IMG/VR virus record: IMGVR_UViG_3300032007_000113 | DNA: 56,062 nucleotides | Source of the DNA: a virus | Strand: one strand, 5' to 3' | Part shown: piece after piece, positions 36,568 to 50,256 of the stretch | How positions within the stretch are numbered: the first letter of the stretch is position 1 | How the letters are laid out: each line of letters begins with the position of its first letter | Program-made: the position numbers and the translations under genes | The notes under the pieces: model-generated | What the model saw: only the letters and a program-made list of their open reading frames with translations | Databases searched by the model: none | Told to the model about the DNA's origin: nothing

Positions 36568-37776
36568 TTAATTATTATTGTTAAAAAGTCTCGATACTTT
36601 TGCAAAGTCTTCATGCACCATCGTAGCGGTCACCTTGGCATACTTCTGCGTCTCGCGTGTCGTCGTGTGGCCCATCATCTTCGCAAGACTCTCCATCGAC
36701 ACACCGTTGCGCAGCATCCACGTAGCGAAAGAGTGACGTGCCAGGTGCGAGTGCAATCGGGTAGTGATGCCCGTCGCCATCTGGATAGCCTTCAGCGCAT
36801 GGTTGTAGTCGGCGTTACCGATCTTTGGAGCCTGCATACCGTATCGCTCAAGCACGTCAACCACGGGAGGCAGTAGCACGCTGACGTATGCCACACCAGT
36901 CTTCACGCGCTCCTGGTTCGATGTCCACACTCCGTCCACCTTCTTGTATTGCCGAATATCAAACCGCTGCGTGTCCGAATAACTCATGCCTGTATATAAT
37001 TGGAAGACGAACAGGTCACGGGCCACACACATCGGAGAACCTGCCATAGGTCTGAGACTGACAATGGCCTGCATCTCTTCGTCGGTGAGGTATTCCAGGT
37101 TCTCACGCACGCCTCGCTTGATCTCTCCGTTGCCTATCCTGTCATAAGGATTTTTGTCTATTCGTCCTACCCGCATCGCACGGCCAATCATATACTTCAT
37201 GTACTTGTGGTAGTTATACACAGCCCCGTCACTGAGACGTGCCGGTTCCTTGCCAGCCTGTTTGTCGGCTGTTCGCTGACGGCATGGAAGAGCATGAAGC
37301 CAGGTATCCCACTCGTATATGCGCTCAACAGTCAGATCGCACCAGCGCGTCATCTTCCCAAACTGCACCAGACGGTCATACAGCAATTCATAGTGCTGCC
37401 GAGTCCCTTCTGCCATATTCAGCATGGGTATTTCTTTTTTCATCCATTCCAGCAACGTCTCCACGCGCACAGGCTCCTTGGTGCCTTCGAAGCATCGCTC
37501 CTTGATAATATTCACGTCTATGGGTATCCGCTCTTCAATGCACTTGTTGATTTCTTCATTCACCCTGCGAACAATCAGCCCAAGCCGATTATTAAGCGCA
37601 TCCGCGTCAGGACGGGCCACAATCGCCCCTGCCCAGTGCTTTGCACGCACGCGCATACCAGTATTAATATAATACGACTTCCTATCAATGGTCACTCTCA
37701 CTTCGAGCGTCCCTTCTGCGTTCTTATCTTCTTGCGCCACTTTACGACGGTCAAATATTATTCTGGTCGAAAACAT
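36568..37776 (-). CDS. int: tyrosine integrase (Bacteroides phage/CTn type)
   Basis: ARHSFATWMLRNGVSMESLAKMMGHTTTRETQKYAKV catalytic C-terminus (R..H..R/Y); N-terminal arm-binding-like domain. Confidence 0.9.
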   Translation of the reverse strand: MFSTRIIFDRRKVAQEDKNAEGTLEVRVTIDRKSYYINTGMRVRAKHWAGAIVARPDADALNNRLGLIVRRVNEEINKCIEERIPIDVNIIKERCFEGTKEPVRVETLLEWMKKEIPMLNMAEGTRQHYELLYDRLVQFGKMTRWCDLTVERIYEWDTWLHALPCRQRTADKQAGKEPARLSDGAVYNYHKYMKYMIGRAMRVGRIDKNPYDRIGNGEIKRGVRENLEYLTDEEMQAIVSLRPMAGSPMCVARDLFVFQLYTGMSYSDTQRFDIRQYKKVDGVWTSNQERVKTGVAYVSVLLPPVVDVLERYGMQAPKIGNADYNHALKAIQMATGITTRLHSHLARHSFATWMLRNGVSMESLAKMMGHTTTRETQKYAKVTATMVHEDFAKVSRLFNNNN

Positions 37777-38143: not shown

Positions 38144-38710
38144 TCATCTTGATTCTTTTTTAATATAACAATCAGTGAAATACATGCCGTCGTTTGTGCC
38201 GATATAACAGTAGCAACGGCAAGGGAGAGTGGCGAACTCACGGACGTAGGTGGTTTGGTCTTTAGGGACGTAGCCGACACGGTGCCCTTCACTGGTGACT
38301 ATCTTGACGGCGTTCTGGTCGTAGGGGTTGGTCGGGTCGGGTTCCATGGTGGCAGCGAACTCGCCGAGGTGTTCATCAATGTGTTCGCCATGTGTGATGC
38401 CTGCAATGGTGAATTCGAGGTAGTCACCTATGCCTTGATCCTTGGGCCAGACGCTGACGTGGTAGCCTTTGTCCTTGATGCAGAAGTAACGGAGACGTTG
38501 AACACTGGGTTCGTCAATGGGATGAGGAGCAGATGCCCGAGAACGGTCATCCGATGAATGAATCGGGTCACCATTGTCGTCAAGGAGGTCGAAGTGGGTA
38601 GGCTGTTCTACTGTCTTTTGCTTTTCTGATTCTTCTTTGTTTCTGCGTGAAACTTTAACAGCATAAACAATCAGACATACTGCAATAATGAATAAAATTA
38701 AGAGACTCAT
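38144..38710 (-). CDS. membrane-anchored HIRAN-domain protein
   Basis: Start at MSLLILFIIAVCLIVYAV (TM); C-terminal EPDPTNPYDQNAVKIVTSEGHRVGYVPKD HIRAN signature. Confidence 0.65.
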   Translation of the reverse strand: MSLLILFIIAVCLIVYAVKVSRRNKEESEKQKTVEQPTHFDLLDDNGDPIHSSDDRSRASAPHPIDEPSVQRLRYFCIKDKGYHVSVWPKDQGIGDYLEFTIAGITHGEHIDEHLGEFAATMEPDPTNPYDQNAVKIVTSEGHRVGYVPKDQTTYVREFATLPCRCYCYIGTNDGMYFTDCYIKKESR

Positions 38711-38714
38711 AAAC

Positions 38715-39290
38715 TTATATATTAGGTTGTTTGTTATCTTCAGCAGCTCCCATAGTAAAAGGATAGCGTGATAGGTCGCCAGTGGTAGCAGCGGCCAGTT
38801 TGCGCTCCAGTTCAATGATTTGGGCATCTTGCGCTTTGATGATTTCTTCTTTGTCGGCAATGGTACGCTGCAGGTCTGCGATGCGAGACTTTAAGGCGGA
38901 AATAGTTTCATCTTTTGCTGCAAGTGCAGAATTGAACACACTCGACACATCAATGAACTGCTCGTGCGGCATATCTGATGAATGTTGCTGTGACCGCTCG
39001 AAAACCAGCCGCTCTCCTGGGTGCTGCTGATAGTAGGCCAAATCTTCCATCAGCATGCAATTTGGATCTTCACCACGAAGCCACTGAAGGTTAAATATGC
39101 AGCCGGAAGCCGTTTGCAACTTTGTAATGATGTCCTCGGTGACCTCTGTATAATCTTTAAGTATGCGCGTGATAGTGTTTTCCGTCACGCCCATACGATG
39201 TGCCAGTTCTTTTTGCGTCTTTATGTCTGTGTTGCGTTTAAGATAATCGAACGCAGCGGCAAAAATATTATTCCTTAATCTCATAAGCAA
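38715..39290 (-). CDS. CI-like repressor (HTH + coiled coil)
   Basis: KTQKELAHRMGVTENTITRILKD HTH; divergent from the early operon. Confidence 0.6.
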   Translation of the reverse strand: MLMRLRNNIFAAAFDYLKRNTDIKTQKELAHRMGVTENTITRILKDYTEVTEDIITKLQTASGCIFNLQWLRGEDPNCMLMEDLAYYQQHPGERLVFERSQQHSSDMPHEQFIDVSSVFNSALAAKDETISALKSRIADLQRTIADKEEIIKAQDAQIIELERKLAAATTGDLSRYPFTMGAAEDNKQPNI

Positions 39291-39468
39291 AACACATTAA
39301 TACCTTAAACATTGTTAAAAATCACCACCAATCTACACAAGTACCAAAATAAGTTTGTATATTTGCACCCGAAAGTAACTAACAAATACGGGGCATAGAA
39401 ATAGCCGTCAGACGTTGAGCGTCTTTTCGCATAAAGCGCACACGGCACTTTGCAAAGGGTTTGGAATG

Positions 39469-39772: not shown

Positions 39773-40561
39773 ATGACAAACGATTTGATTCAATTCGGAG
39801 AGAGCAGGCAGACGATGAGCAGTTTGGAGATTGCCAAACTGACAGGTAAGCCACACAATGACGTGATGAAGGCCATCCGCAAGATGGAGCCAGCATGGGA
39901 GAAAGTACATGAGGGAAAATTTTCCCTGATGTATCGTGAGACTGAAATCGGCAATGGTGCAACAAGAAAAGACCCATATTACGAACTGACCAAGACCGAG
40001 TGTCTTTATGTCGCCACGAAGTTCAACGACGAAGCTCGTGCAAAGTTGGTGCTCCGTTGGGAAGAGTTAGAGCAGAAGCAGCGTTCTCAGATGCTCCATT
40101 TGCCGGACTTCACCGATCCTGCCGAGGCTGCAATAGCATGGGCAAAGGAATATAAGGAGAAGAAGGTGCTGGCCATCGAGAACAAGAAGCTCGAAGAAGA
40201 GAATATCCAACTCGCTGCCGAGAACCAGGAACTGAAGCACGACAAGAACTATCTCGACCTGATTATGAGGTCTAAGGCTTTGCTCACTATCAGCCAGATT
40301 GCACAGGACTACGGCATGAGCGGCAAGGCACTGAACAAGAAGTTGGCCGAGATGGGCATACAGTACAGCATCAACGGCCAGTGGATACTCTATGCTAAGT
40401 ATAAGGATTGCGGCTACGTGTCGAGTCGTTCTATCGACATCACCCGCACTGATGGTCGCCCAGACGTGGTGCTTCACACCGAATGGACGCAGGCAGGCCG
40501 CAAGTTCCTGTATGAGGAATTGAAGAAGCAAGGTATCATACCAATGTTGGAAAGGGATTGA
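39773..40561 (+). CDS. Rha-family regulator with KilAC/ANT-like C-terminal domain (antirepressor)
   Basis: MSSLEIAKLTGKPHNDVMKAIRKM Rha N-terminus; ISQIAQDYGMSGKALNKKLAEMGI C-terminal domain. Confidence 0.75.
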   Translation: MTNDLIQFGESRQTMSSLEIAKLTGKPHNDVMKAIRKMEPAWEKVHEGKFSLMYRETEIGNGATRKDPYYELTKTECLYVATKFNDEARAKLVLRWEELEQKQRSQMLHLPDFTDPAEAAIAWAKEYKEKKVLAIENKKLEEENIQLAAENQELKHDKNYLDLIMRSKALLTISQIAQDYGMSGKALNKKLAEMGIQYSINGQWILYAKYKDCGYVSSRSIDITRTDGRPDVVLHTEWTQAGRKFLYEELKKQGIIPMLERD

Positions 40562-40784: not shown

Positions 40785-41072
40785 ATGGACAGGAAGTTGA
40801 GAGAAGAGATATTGGCCACGGTGCAGAAGGCTACCGAGGCGGCTCTGGTGAAGGCTGGTGAGCGTTGGATCACGGCGGACGAATTGTGCAAGCAGTTCCA
40901 GATGTTCACCAAGGACTGGTTGGAGAAATATGGGGATATACTTCCACATAAGCGGATAATGGTGACACACCTGAACGGAAAGACAAGAAAGACGCGGGTG
41001 ACATATCCACAGCATGAGATTGCGATTAATATTTCCGAGGGGCTTTACGACGACATGAAGCTGTTGAGGTGA
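40785..41072 (+). CDS. small DNA-binding (excisionase/HTH_17-like) candidate
   Basis: ERWITADELCKQFQMFTKDWL pattern; weak. Confidence 0.4.
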   Translation: MDRKLREEILATVQKATEAALVKAGERWITADELCKQFQMFTKDWLEKYGDILPHKRIMVTHLNGKTRKTRVTYPQHEIAINISEGLYDDMKLLR

Positions 41073-41118
41073 TGACTGTTGACGTGACACGGCAACAGAC
41101 TTGACAAAATCAATATAA

Positions 41119-41245
41119 GGAAGGTAAAAGCCGGAATAGTTGGCGCAAACCGGCATTGGAATAAGTGGGCATCTCCTTCACCAGCGTTTAGCGGTGGTCC
41201 ACGAATAGAATAGATGAGCAGGCGGTTCGAGTCCGCCACCTTCCA
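41119..41245 (+). ncRNA. atypical 127-nt tRNA-like element
   Basis: Perfect 7-bp acceptor GGAAGGT/ACCTTCC; canonical T-arm ggcgg-TTCGAGT-ccgcc; the ~95-nt interior does not fold as D and anticodon arms. Confidence 0.5.
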
Positions 41246-41679
41246 CAAACGCCGAGGGACGTGCAGCGTGCAATCCCGGCAAGTAGGCTGACATATTGTA
41301 ACACTGGGGAAGCCGATTGGTGGAACCGAAACGGCATCGAAAGAGACCAAACCGATGAGCGAGTGGAAAGAGGCGACATGAAAAAGGGTCGCGAGTACAA
41401 CAATCTGACGCAGGTAATTTCCGAATCTGTAAGACCCACGGGATGGGTTATGGTTGCGACTGAGTTGCAACATACGGGACAGATAGGTAGTAGTGTAAGG
41501 CCGAGGGAAGTGTGGGACGTGAGACGTTGGCTGAATGGTTGCTGTAACGCAGCAACAGACGAAATGAATTGAAATACGGAATCCTGATTGCAAGTCCAAT
41601 AATGCGGATGGGCTCTGCGTCGTATGTCGTAGGCTGGTGTGGCTGCCAGCTGCTTGTATGAGGGATAAATTATATGGTA
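41246..41679 (+). ncRNA. candidate large structured RNA between the two tRNA-like modules
   Basis: No convincing ORF; many local stems, e.g. gttgctg-taacg-cagcaac, gcgac..gtcgc, catcg..cgatg, ccg-aaa-cgg. Confidence 0.4.
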
Positions 41680-41768
41680 TGCCGTGTAGTTCAACATGGT
41701 GGAGCAGCGGGCAGTACTGAAAGACGTGCTGCTGTCGAGCGGAGCTGGTTCGAGCCCAGCCACGGCAA
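41680..41768 (+). tRNA. atypical 89-nt tRNA-like gene, isotype undetermined
   Basis: Acceptor TGCCGTG/CACGGCA, U8, D-arm gttc-aacatGGtg-gagc, T-arm gctgg-TTCGAGC-ccagc; the anticodon region forms a ~26-nt bulged arm rather than a 5-bp stem with a 7-nt loop. Confidence 0.45.
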
Positions 41769-41817
41769 CGTGTTTTTCATGGTTATTTAGTTTATAAGAT
41801 TCTTATTTATTTTGCGT

Positions 41818-41840
41818 AACCTCAGCGGAGGTTGTTTTCT
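41818..41840 (+). terminator. rho-independent terminator T1
   Basis: aacctc-agcg-gaggtt then gttttct. Confidence 0.7.
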
Positions 41841-41877
41841 GTTGTTATAACATACCTAAAGAGTAATGTTTATTTTT

Positions 41878-41913
41878 ACCTGCCCGCCGTGAGGCTCTCA
41901 GGTTTTTCTTTTT
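41878..41913 (+). terminator. rho-independent terminator T2
   Basis: acctgcccgcc-gtga-ggctctcaggt then ttttctttttc. Confidence 0.7.
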
Positions 41914-41938
41914 CATCATTTTGTATGATTATTTGTAT

Positions 41939-41969
41939 ACCTGCCAGCCGCGAGGCTCGCAGGTTTTTT
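41939..41969 (+). terminator. rho-independent terminator T3 (paralog of T2)
   Basis: acctgccagcc-gcga-ggctcgcaggt then tttttt. Confidence 0.8.
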
Positions 41970-42007
41970 ATTACTGAACATCATTAACAACTAAAATAAA
42001 TACGATT

Positions 42008-42136
42008 ATGAAAGAACTTATTGACATTTTGATGAGCGAAGACAAGTCTTTTGATGGAATGCCTTGGTGGATGTACGCATTGGTGATGCCGGCAGCACTG
42101 GTGCTGATGTGCTTAATCGGAGGTACGCTGTCATGA
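42008..42136 (+). CDS. 42-aa single-TM peptide (paralog of 52240..52368)
   Basis: MKELIDILMSEDKSFDGMPWWMYALVMPAALVLMCLIGGTLS; ATGA overlap with the next gene. Confidence 0.5.
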   Translation: MKELIDILMSEDKSFDGMPWWMYALVMPAALVLMCLIGGTLS

Positions 42137-43418: not shown

Positions 43419-43733
43419 ATGGAAGTAACAGGTAAGATTATTGCGGTGATGCCTGCACAGAGCGGCACATCGCAGCGGACGGGCAATGCTTGGATGACTC
43501 AGCAGTACGTGCTGGAGGTTCCTGGTATGTACCCTAAGAAAATGGTGTTTGAAGTGTTCGGCGAGGACAAAATCAAGAGTTTCAATGTCCAGCAGGGCAT
43601 GGAAGTAACGGTGAGCTTTGAGATTGACGCTCACGAATACAACGGACGTTGGTTCAACGAAGTACGTGCATGGAACGTGAAGCCAGCCGGACAGCAGCAG
43701 CCGACAGCGCAAAGCGTGGCATCAACGCTGTAG
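43419..43733 (+). CDS. DUF3127-like OB-fold protein (ssDNA-binding candidate)
   Basis: MEVTGKIIAV.P.QSG.S..G..W..Q.YVLE......K...F.V.G; recalled family pattern, not searched. Confidence 0.5.
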   Translation: MEVTGKIIAVMPAQSGTSQRTGNAWMTQQYVLEVPGMYPKKMVFEVFGEDKIKSFNVQQGMEVTVSFEIDAHEYNGRWFNEVRAWNVKPAGQQQPTAQSVASTL

Positions 43734-49756: not shown

Positions 49757-49925
49757 TACGGGGCAGTATTGAGGCGATGACTACAACCTCTTTACTCGGA
49801 GAAACAGCACATGAGAAGCAGTCCTGCCGCCAATAGTCAGGTGTGCAAGGTGACAATAGGTGTGCAATGAGGCAGAAAGCAAAGTACACGCAAGTATGTA
49901 ATACATATTCCGTTCCCGTACTTTT

Positions 49926-50229
49926 GGGGGTATTTTGGTTTTGATTGCTGATGGAAGGCAAGAAATCGTGCAAGCAGTCATGCTTTGAAATGGCAAAACA
50001 AATAAACGCTAAGGTTGTCAATATGACTCCCCGTGCTAACATGCTGGCAGCAGCATAAGCACCTCGCGGGTGACTTGCGAAGGAACATAAAGGTCACGTC
50101 TCACGTTTTCCGCGTTTTCTCAAAATGCGGTGGTGGAACGCTCGTCCAGCTATCTGGTCAGCCCCAACGCACGTAACAAAGTTTCTATAATAAGTCAGTA
50201 AGACGAGGGTTCGACTCCCTCTACCTCCA
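49926..50229 (+). ncRNA. ssrA: transfer-messenger RNA (tmRNA)
   Basis: Acceptor GGGGGTA/TACCTCC with G3:U70; T-arm gaggg-TTCGACT-ccctc; helix 2a ttgctga (49945-51)/tcagtaa (50195-201); tag frame GCA 49993 to TAA 50056-58 encodes AKQINAKVVNMTPRANMLAAA. Confidence 0.85.
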
Positions 50230-50256
50230 CTATCAAACATTAAGCATTATAAAGTT

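Follow-up and report, generated by a model that had tools for sequence, protein, structure and literature searches.

What is encoded at positions 41246-41679 of the virus record IMGVR_UViG_3300032007_000113? The whole stretch that we analysed, a 56,062-nt sequence from IMG/VR (here called the window), leaves these 434 nt on the + strand between a 95-codon open reading frame (ORF) at 40785-41072 and a 42-codon ORF at 42008-42136, both likewise on the + strand. A model that read the sequence alone had proposed a large structured RNA of about 430 nt here, next to transfer RNA (tRNA) genes; we refer to this as the original prediction. The element, which we call the core RNA, is noncoding and structured, and we hold this part of our conclusion with high confidence. 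On balance we favor the view that it belongs to an uncatalogued family of structured noncoding RNAs (ncRNAs) of phages, bracketed by two tRNA mimics, TL1 and TL2, and that it is probably excised from a longer transcript and acts in trans. All elements described below lie on the + strand unless we say otherwise.

A large phage RNA in this position might belong to a known family. At gathering thresholds, Rfam 15 found only a transfer-messenger RNA (tmRNA) in the whole window, at 49926-50232 (69.7 bits). When 40900-42100 was searched at E ≤ 10, only chance-level matches were obtained, with no ROOL, GOLLD, OLE, raiA, HEARO, RNase P, or introns among them, and the models of group I and group II introns and of tmRNA had no match within 41246-41679 at this threshold. 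In 12 homologous loci searched at E ≤ 1, ROOL, GOLLD, OLE, raiA, and HEARO were again missing, and Rfam returned only tRNA in the flanks. The core RNA matches neither the ROOL (RF03087) nor the GOLLD (RF01998) covariance model, and the original prediction, which could not place the element in any known family, was right for all five of the large RNAs it had in mind (ROOL, GOLLD, HEARO, OLE, and raiA). Our searches of the accessible literature turned up no account of the core RNA family, and a 2023 catalogue of viral csRNAs contains only motifs of ≤151 nt.

We therefore relied on homologs, since the folding energy of the single sequence does not differ from that of shuffles and the case rests on their comparison. 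GenBank phages contained no similar sequence by blastn, and a search for related loci with a downstream 155-aa protein found nothing. Searching IMG/VR with the exact T-arm of TL1 returned two contigs whose TL1 is related, although the noncoding stretch downstream of it differs, and the exact T-arm of TL2 had no match there. With p95, the 95-aa protein encoded directly upstream, we retrieved 17 loci, 3 of which (L008, L012, and L013) align to the core at 69-79% identity. The most conserved block, GGTAGTAGYGYAAGNCCGAGGGAAG (41486-41510), was then used as a motif and matched 22 IMG/VR loci, 98 metagenome loci, and 2 contigs in genome collections, which are metagenome-assembled genomes (MAGs) of an uncultured Prevotellaceae and an uncultured Bacteroidales bacterium. 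A second motif, AAACGGYANCGAAANAGAC, added 13 viral loci (6 of the 41 matches of that scan are due to chance). The family thus amounts to about 135 loci (22 + 13 from IMG/VR, 98 from metagenomes, and 2 MAGs). Many of the source sample identifiers, from the Joint Genome Institute (JGI), are presumably those of rumen metagenomes. After deduplication there were 97 distinct cores, 74 of them with full flanks. The homologs are 58-81% identical to the copy in the window and range from about 390 to 510 nt in length, yet the core contains near-invariant blocks of 20-26 nt. Given this range of identity, the conservation is not an artifact of near-identical genomes. A covariance model built from the central 170 nt (41327-41496; CM R1, with 154 positions and 21 pairs) finds one copy in the window (124.6 bits, E = 1.6e-31) and recovers all independent family members at 83-155 bits. 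The family is carried by temperate phages of Prevotellaceae/Bacteroidales-type hosts.

A protein-coding gene is the first alternative to the noncoding RNA, and three ORFs could be its basis. The 103-codon GTG ORF that the original prediction described does exist (41261-41572), and two ORFs run through the region on the - strand, 41188-41763 (191 aa) and 41045-41599 (184 aa). Public gene callers also place - strand ORFs on the homologous region at times, of 162 aa (L163:958-1446, -) and 221 aa (L164:848-1513, -). However, the frame aligned to the GTG ORF is interrupted in all homologs by one or more stop codons (median, 5). Relative to the window, each homolog also has 8 or more indel runs whose length is not divisible by three, and these disrupt the - strand ORFs as well. 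Column diversity by codon position is 0.24/0.29/0.25, with no excess at the third position. The codon-like substitutions that the original prediction had named as evidence against an RNA are thus absent, and the substitutions in helices are compensatory. None of the three translations matches Pfam or PHROGs. Long ORFs on the - strand are expected because the + strand is purine rich, and they also run through both T-arms. We regard the coding alternative as effectively refuted already, and the - strand calls in the public annotation as spurious. In other public gene calls, those of L161 and L162 (1788-2750), the RNA unit is an empty gap of about 1 kb.

Covariation among the homologs supports the structure. 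For the 5′ half, a hand-built structure of 43 pairs in 54 sequences (A3) was compared with 500 shuffles. In A3, 93.1% of cells are paired, compared to 85.4 ± 0.4 in the shuffles; 19 of the 43 pairs show double changes (13 ± 1.4 in shuffles), there are 146 double-changed cells (46), and the covariation score is 0.191 (0.096). On none of the four measures did any of the 500 shuffles reach the observed value, and controls in which the structure was slid were 23-38% paired. The CM R1 alignment (A7; 21 pairs, 74 sequences, and again 500 shuffles) has 87.8% of cells paired, compared to 75.1 in shuffles, with double changes in 15/21 pairs and 186 double-changed cells (68 in shuffles). Its covariation score of 0.343 (0.146 in shuffles) was reached by 0/500 shuffles, and the slid controls gave ≤0.084. 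In this test, which the original prediction had proposed, compensatory changes exceed both kinds of control; together with the absence of a coding signal, this bears out a structured noncoding RNA of about the predicted size and boundaries. Many pairs alternate between G-C or A-U and G-U (for example, GC:28/GU:26 and CG:36/UG:26), which identifies the structure as + strand RNA and excludes one in duplex DNA or on the - strand. Mutual information over the whole alignment ranks the Watson-Crick pairs of the V3, V5, and V7-type hairpins (below) first and brought to light a long-range helix, P4. When base-pair probabilities were averaged over 59 homologs on the MAFFT alignment, only weak signals emerged, for four local hairpins. 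A naive helix scan on the same kind of alignment was noisy because the variable hairpins are misaligned.

Three parts make up the core RNA. The 5′ core, about 315 nt long (41246-41560), is conserved in all members and is followed by a swappable 3′ domain of some 100 nt and by a short conserved leader directly adjoining TL2. At least 10 helices, one three-way element among them, are found in the 434 nt. We cut the homologs at conserved anchor blocks and folded the variable stretches, which gave the same hairpins from different sequences. The five helices listed in the original prediction are all present in the sequence: gttgctg-taacg-cagcaac at 41538-41556, gttgcgac..gttgcaac at 41453-41471, gcgac..gtcgc at 41373-41392, catcg..cgatg at 41335-39/41353-57, and ccg-aaa-cgg at 41326-34. 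In homologs, the helices at 41373-92, 41453-71, and 41538-56 covary (3/5), whereas catcg/cgatg is not maintained: its three inner pairs are compatible in just 16-27 of 59 sequences, and we dropped it. Several helices beyond that list covary as well. The repeat seen in the original prediction, CCGAGGGA(C/A)GUG, occurs at 41252-63 and 41501-12, and in both copies it is nearly invariant among family members.

The first copy of the CCGAGGGA motif forms the 5′ strand of the P1 stem (41251-41280), which pairs GCC 41251-53 with GGC 41278-80, GGGA 41256-59 with UCCC 41274-77, and UGC 41262-64 with GCA 41270-72. The pair 41259-41274 changes from A-U to U-A in 9 sequences, the pairs 41263-71 and 41264-70 change from G-C/C-G to A-U/U-A in 3 and 5 sequences, and the pair 41251-41280 is G-C in 28 sequences and G-U in 26. 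An alternative pairing of GCC 41251-53 with the GGC of AAACGGC cannot be separated from the local partner by the data; the local pairing was kept. P1 is followed by V1, a variable stem-loop domain (41285-41328) of 43 nt here and 65-110 nt in other lineages. It folds into a stem-loop in every lineage, from differing sequences, and its pairs were not formally counted because MAFFT cannot align it. The long-range helix P4, found by mutual information, joins ACC 41346-48 to GGU 41413-15 (span 41346-41415), is compatible in 51/51 sequences, and encloses the GUGGAAAGAG block, the V3 hairpin, and AGUACA. UC/GA extends P4 in about 25 sequences and GC/GC in 3, and the others have purine-purine (GA/AA) at this place; UCGCG/CGUGA also occurs. 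In V3 (GCGA 41373-76/UCGC 41389-92), double changes occur at 4/4 pairs in A7, with 99.6% of cells paired. The window has GCGAC/GUCGC, and ACGG/CCGU, GCAGC/GCUGU, and GCGGC/GCCGC occur elsewhere.

V5 (41425-41484) is the three-way element. Its outer helix, AUCUG 41425-29/CAGAU 41480-84, has double changes at 3/5 pairs in A7; the inner hairpin, 41433-38/41444-49, has them at 5/6 pairs (e.g., CG:41, GC:17, and AU:8) and carries a conserved ACGRG-type loop. The V5 pairs rank top by mutual information in the whole alignment. The outer helix always closes the inner hairpin and sometimes the second one (41453-60/41464-71), which is optional, being present in 17/54 sequences with double changes at 4/8 pairs. 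Directly after V5 comes the most conserved block of the RNA, AGGUAGUAGUGUAAGGCCGAGGGAAG (41485-41510), which is near-invariant and holds the second CCGAGGGA copy. V7 (41538-41556), GUUGCUG-UAACG-CAGCAAC, has at least 7 Watson-Crick-compatible stem variants across the family. Besides that of the window these are GUUGCGA/UCGCAAC, GUUGCCG/CGGCAAC, CCGCA/UGCGG, CCAC/GUGG, CCAUG/..AUGG, and CCACC/GGUGG, and the pair 41540-41555 is U-A in 30 sequences and C-G in 26. Behind this same core stand at least 4 unrelated versions of the 3′ domain (41560-41668 in the window, type A). Two versions have a hairpin in common, GCUGG 41633-37/CCAGC 41646-50 in the window and GCAGG/CCUGC in type C, and it covaries (U-A in 16, A-U in 16, and G-C in 3 sequences). 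The short conserved leader, AUAUAUGGUA, runs directly into TL2. Some further pairings were tried and set aside. GGCC 41499-502 with GGCU 41529-32 was dropped for inconsistent variation; UUUCC 41418-22 can pair with GGAAA 41365-69 or with GGGAA 41505-09, both of them compatible with all columns invariant; and a pairing of the V3 loop with V4, suggested by one covarying column pair, had no support from its neighbors.

The original prediction placed the RNA next to tRNA genes. Indeed, tRNA-type elements flank it on both sides in a phage setting, but they are degenerate mimics and not ordinary tRNA genes. Both were read from the sequence and its fold. TL1 (41119-41245; 127 nt) has an acceptor stem of GGAAGGU 41119-25/ACCUUCC 41238-44 with discriminator A41245, a T-arm GGCGG-UUCGAGU-CCGCC (41221-37), and a D-like hairpin GCCGG..CCGGC, which shows a compensatory change to GCCUG/CAGGC. 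In place of the anticodon arm there is a long irregular arm with a 5-nt loop. TL2 (41680-41768; 89 nt) has the acceptor stem UGCCGUG 41680-86/CACGGCA 41761-67 with discriminator A41768, a T-arm GCUGG-UUCGAGC-CCAGC (41744-60), and a D-arm GUUC..GAGC; its anticodon arm is replaced by an 8-bp stem with an 8-nt loop and in most homologs by a long stem capped by UUCG or another tetraloop. The 5′ half of TL2, UGCCGUGUAGCUCAGUUGGUAGAGC, is conserved, and its acceptor stem covaries (UGUCGUG/CACGACA and UGCCGCG/CGCGGCA). The two elements thus share a 7-bp acceptor stem, a 5-bp T-stem with a UUCGAnn loop, and a GG-containing D-type loop, and the 5-bp anticodon stem with a 7-nt loop is absent from both.

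Programs for tRNA detection treat these elements accordingly. By default, ARAGORN found no tRNA anywhere in the window, only the tmRNA (49926-50230), and its forced or relaxed modes produced only odd calls on TL1 and TL2. Both elements of the window fall below the thresholds for tRNA (RF00005), taken as at least 29 bits or an ARAGORN call. The best Rfam match of TL2 is tRNA-Sec, with 15.8 bits on 41680-41767 and a gathering score of 47. In homologs, the equivalent flanks do score as tRNA, with 34-65 bits, many of them over-long at 84-138 nt. ARAGORN is erratic there: TL1 is often called tRNA-Ser(GCU) and TL2 is often a "tRNA-???" with two- or four-base anticodons or has mutually inconsistent anticodons, despite a near-identical acceptor stem and D-arm. 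The calls are erratic because the anticodon arm is hypervariable, in contrast to the acceptor, D, and T parts, which either are conserved or covary. Nearly every locus has one T-arm 246-316 nt ahead of the conserved motif and another 210-300 nt behind it. In a strict test, which required a T-arm and a 3′ acceptor strand able to pair with a 5′ strand at ≥6/7 positions, the upstream element was found in 69 of 74 members (about 2.8 in shuffles), the downstream element also in 69 of 74 (about 1.6), and both in 64 (about 2-3/74). Conservation of the core starts 1 nt after the TL1 discriminator (CAAACGCC...) and reaches the first base of the TL2 acceptor (..UAUAUGGUA followed by UGCCGUG). The tRNA-like flanks are part of the conserved unit and not incidental neighbors. 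In the searchable literature, we came across no phage RNA that has dedicated tRNA mimics on both sides.

Two other structures adjoin the mimics. Between the p95 stop codon and TL1 there is a hairpin, CUGUUG-ACGUGACACGG-CAACAG (41076-41100), with a minimum free energy (MFE) of -8.7 kcal/mol (z = -3.0). Homologs have a hairpin of unrelated sequence at this position, such as GUCGCUAUGACAUAGCGAC or CCUUGCGGGAAAACCGCAAGG, and it is not followed by a U-run; it may be a site for processing or protein binding. At the other end, AUAUGG of the leader can pair over 6 bp with CCGUGU of the TL2 acceptor 5′ strand (within 41669-41686), and the pairing stays compatible in homologs through one-sided changes. 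If this pairing forms, it would do so at the expense of the TL2 acceptor stem and could serve as a processing switch.

The unit sits in the early region of a temperate phage. The window encodes a large terminase (110-2140), a tyrosine integrase (36568-37776, -), a Rha/KilAC antirepressor (39773-40561), a DUF3127 protein resembling single-stranded DNA-binding (SSB) proteins (43419-43733), an AAA_25 protein, and a DnaG-type primase. Bacteroidetes-type -7 boxes (TAnnTTTG) at 39350-39365 stand at the head of a rightward early operon, which continues with the Rha/Ant antirepressor, small proteins, p95, the RNA, and terminators; a sigma-70 promoter scan told us little about this Bacteroidota phage. 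The p95 gene (40785-41072) is the conserved upstream neighbor: in 100/123 loci it lies directly upstream of the RNA unit, with a mean identity of 43% by tblastn. The protein has no family in Pfam, PHROGs, or NCBIfam. Its AlphaFold2 (AF2) model (pLDDT, 74.6; topology, H-E-H-H-E-E-H) had weak winged-helix matches in a Foldseek search of the PDB (best E = 0.05), and the fold is predicted to be winged-helix-like. Conversely, just 3 of the 17 loci found with p95 carry the core RNA. In related phages, this slot behind p95 and a TL1-type element is taken by other noncoding stretches, purine rich and about 270-480 nt long (L001:470-1000; L002:2715-3150, -; L004, L005, L010, L011, and L015) that do not align to the core family. 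CM R1 has no significant match in them (L010 comes to 15.1 bits, E = 0.06), and Rfam gives only tRNA. Their placement suggests that one or more further uncatalogued RNAs may share the tRNA-mimic cassette position.

Three terminator-like hairpins with U-runs follow TL2, at 41816-41835 (from the terminator scan), about 41868-41905, and 41940-41969, from which we conclude that the RNA closes the immediate-early rightward transcription unit. The last two, read from the sequence, are GC-rich near duplicates about 70 nt apart, each followed by U5-6, and they also surface as terminator-like stems in weak Rfam alignments. Their tandem sequence is ACCUGCC[C/A]GCCG[U/C]GAGGCUC[U/G]CAGGUUUUU, and a simple terminator scan flagged neither. 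The stretch right after TL2, 41770-41844, starts with GUGUUUUUCAUGGU, the first 14 nt of the consensus of the Bacteroidetes small RNA (sRNA) FopS, and ends in a terminator hairpin. Its Rfam score is 21.7 bits (E = 1.4; gathering score, 56), and it was not seen after TL2 among the homologs inspected.

How would such a unit work? The combination of an acceptor stem with a T-arm/elbow is what RNase P and RNase Z need to define ends. From the anatomy of the mimics and the established specificity of these enzymes, we infer that TL1 and TL2 are their substrates and set the ends of the core RNA. The mimics would then be built-in punctuation: RNase P would cut at the 5′ ends of both, and a tRNA 3′-end nuclease of the RNase Z type would cut after the discriminator base of TL1, where CCA is not encoded. 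These cuts would separate the core RNA from the p95 mRNA as a stable molecule whose ends are defined, near 41246 and 41679, and the freed RNA would act in trans, early in infection or at induction. Excision by way of the mimics is the best-supported mechanism, and we consider it somewhat more probable than not. A bolder proposal, which we put forward only tentatively, is that the unit is a phage RNA machine of a new class, with the mimics as working parts. They would be processing handles and could also be docking modules for binders of the tRNA elbow (RNase P, the ribosome, tRNA enzymes, or the core itself). The core would be an RNA-only assembly like ROOL and GOLLD, a ribonucleoprotein (RNP) with p95, or a catalytic or tRNA-directed early activity, and the swappable 3′ domain would provide lineage-specific targeting.

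Several observations weigh against an excised, structured, trans-acting RNA. For 41246-41679, the MFE on the + strand is no better than that of dinucleotide shuffles (z = +0.28; -1.26 on the - strand); the whole unit from TL1 to TL2 is uninformative, at z = -0.21, and within the core only the sub-element 41424-41486 stands out (z = -3.3). RNAalifold on the two MAFFT halves gives fragments only, and the helices described above do not add up to a global fold. A candidate pseudoknot, UAC.ACC 41396-41402 with GGU.GUA 41486-92, is 98.8% compatible and lacks covariation support; its columns are invariant or changed on one side only, and covariation neither supports nor refutes it. The near-invariant purine-rich strands GAAACGGCAUCGAAAGAGACC, GGAGUGGAAAGAG, GGUAAUUUCCGAAUC, and AGGUAGUAGUGUAAGGCCGAGGGAAG likewise have no partners backed by covariation. 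In some members TL1 resembles a genuine tRNA-Ser(GCU) and TL2 a tRNA of 72-74 nt at about 60 bits, so the flanks may be decaying real tRNAs kept for another reason. The p95 gene also precedes ordinary tRNAs or nonhomologous noncoding stretches in related phages, and its link to the RNA is therefore syntenic and not demonstrably functional. Finally, the terminators after TL2 are not conserved in homologs.

Some of these points bear on an alternative in which the RNA is a cis element of the early transcript, either a 3′ untranslated region (UTR) or stabilizer of the p95 mRNA or a processive antiterminator or attenuator that controls read-through to the replication genes. The RNA does sit in an operon directly after p95, a conserved hairpin precedes TL1, and in the window the three terminator-like hairpins come directly after the unit, with the next genes on the same strand. 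Yet the terminators are missing in many homologs, where the next gene begins about 60 nt after TL2, and the downstream genes vary, with the 42-aa protein in 22 loci and DUF3127 in 51/123. Known antiterminator RNAs are far smaller, a swappable 3′ domain fits poorly with one fixed cis target, and two tRNA mimics placed exactly at the boundaries favor excision. We consider a cis element unlikely.

The remaining alternatives concern the origin of the unit, and both are less probable still. It could be a highly divergent ROOL or GOLLD, missed because the Rfam models are too narrow. ROOL was first found in the rumen, presumably also the source of many of our metagenomes. The context, a phage or prophage beside tRNA-type genes, is alike, and both are large multi-helix RNAs (PMC5737381, PMC12286853). 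Against this stand the searches, with no match in the window (E ≤ 10) or in the 12 homologous loci (E ≤ 1) and no Rfam model matching any conserved block, as well as the length, 434 nt compared to an average of 581 nt for ROOL and often >800 nt for GOLLD. We find this very improbable. The other proposal, two pseudo-tRNAs around a nonfunctional spacer left by a decaying phage tRNA array or by attP-type tRNA fragments, draws on the degenerate state of the flanks, on the temperate phage with its tyrosine integrase (such phages often carry tRNA fragments at attP), and on related phages whose slot holds ordinary tRNAs, such as a tRNA-Trp of 65 bits in L009. But the supposed spacer is the most conserved part, with its near-invariant blocks at an overall identity of 58-81%, and covaries strongly. 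The flanks are full cloverleaf-like units and not 3′ fragments, their acceptor and T stems covary, and the integrase gene is more than 3 kb away. A tRNA remnant is strongly disfavored. Thus, of the readings considered, we prefer the excised family of phage ncRNAs bracketed by tRNA mimics.

Two other features of the phage deserve mention. The tmRNA gene noted above (+) is full-length, ARAGORN gives its tag peptide as AKVVNMTPRANMLAAA*, and a Bacteroidetes-type -7 box, TACTTTTG, at 49919-49926 ends on the first base of the gene. Its surroundings are small phage ORFs, and the integrase gene is 12 kb away, so it looks phage-encoded and not like the remains of a host attB. Beside the divergent early promoter region, a 238-aa protein (38144-38860, -) matches the HIRAN domain (E = 1.2e-7), which is unusual at a position where a repressor-type gene is expected.

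Large, highly structured RNAs of bacteria and phages whose function is unknown are rare, and the main examples, OLE, GOLLD, ROOL, and raiA, each opened new biology. ROOL and GOLLD were recently shown to form RNA-only nanocages. The new family adds an example from Bacteroidota (Prevotellaceae-type) phages, with an unusually clear-cut and testable architecture of a bracketed core, a modular 3′ domain, and a fixed protein neighbor. If our reading is correct, it offers a natural system for asking why large phage RNAs recur in tRNA islands and a natural bacterial or phage case of tRNA-mimic punctuation that releases a long ncRNA. Well over 100 sequences would be available for structure determination, and annotation would be corrected where gene callers leave a kilobase blank or add spurious antisense ORFs.

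Similar arrangements of an acceptor stem plus T-arm/elbow module at an RNA boundary are found in MALAT1-mascRNA, in the 3′ ends of MEN-beta, in mitochondrial tRNA punctuation, and in bacterial tRNA-linked spacer RNAs. Such tRNA-like punctuation modules dispense with decoding, which matches the loss of the anticodon loop in TL1 and TL2. Those systems are eukaryotic or organellar or use genuine tRNAs. ROOL is known mainly from prophages of Bacillota, whereas the host of the core RNA, by the MAG matches, is from Bacteroidota. The core RNA lies where ROOL-type RNAs do, in a phage genome with tRNA-like elements on both sides. ROOL (RF03087; Weinberg et al. 2017, PMC5737381; cryo-electron microscopy, PMC12286853) is likewise large, multi-helix, noncoding, phage-borne, and near tRNA genes; like it, the core RNA requires no known protein partner and has its conserved nucleotides concentrated in joining regions. 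It is shorter (434 nt, about 390-510 nt in the family, compared to an average of 581 nt), and its tRNA-type neighbors are obligatory, two-sided, directly abutting, and degenerate. With GOLLD (RF01998) it shares the association with phages and tRNA arrays and the division into a conserved and a variable part. GOLLD, whose transcript can contain tRNAs or be covalently joined to them (PMC12286853), is often longer than 800 nt, and its model has no match here. In GOLLD the conserved half is the 3′ one and the linker tRNAs are real, whereas the core RNA is conserved in the 5′ part, has its 3′ domain swapped, and carries anticodon-less mimics at both ends. Both known families are phage or prophage RNAs that lie beside tRNA islands (PMC5737381, PMC12286853), and judged by this context, the core RNA is in our view the Bacteroidota-phage counterpart of ROOL and GOLLD.

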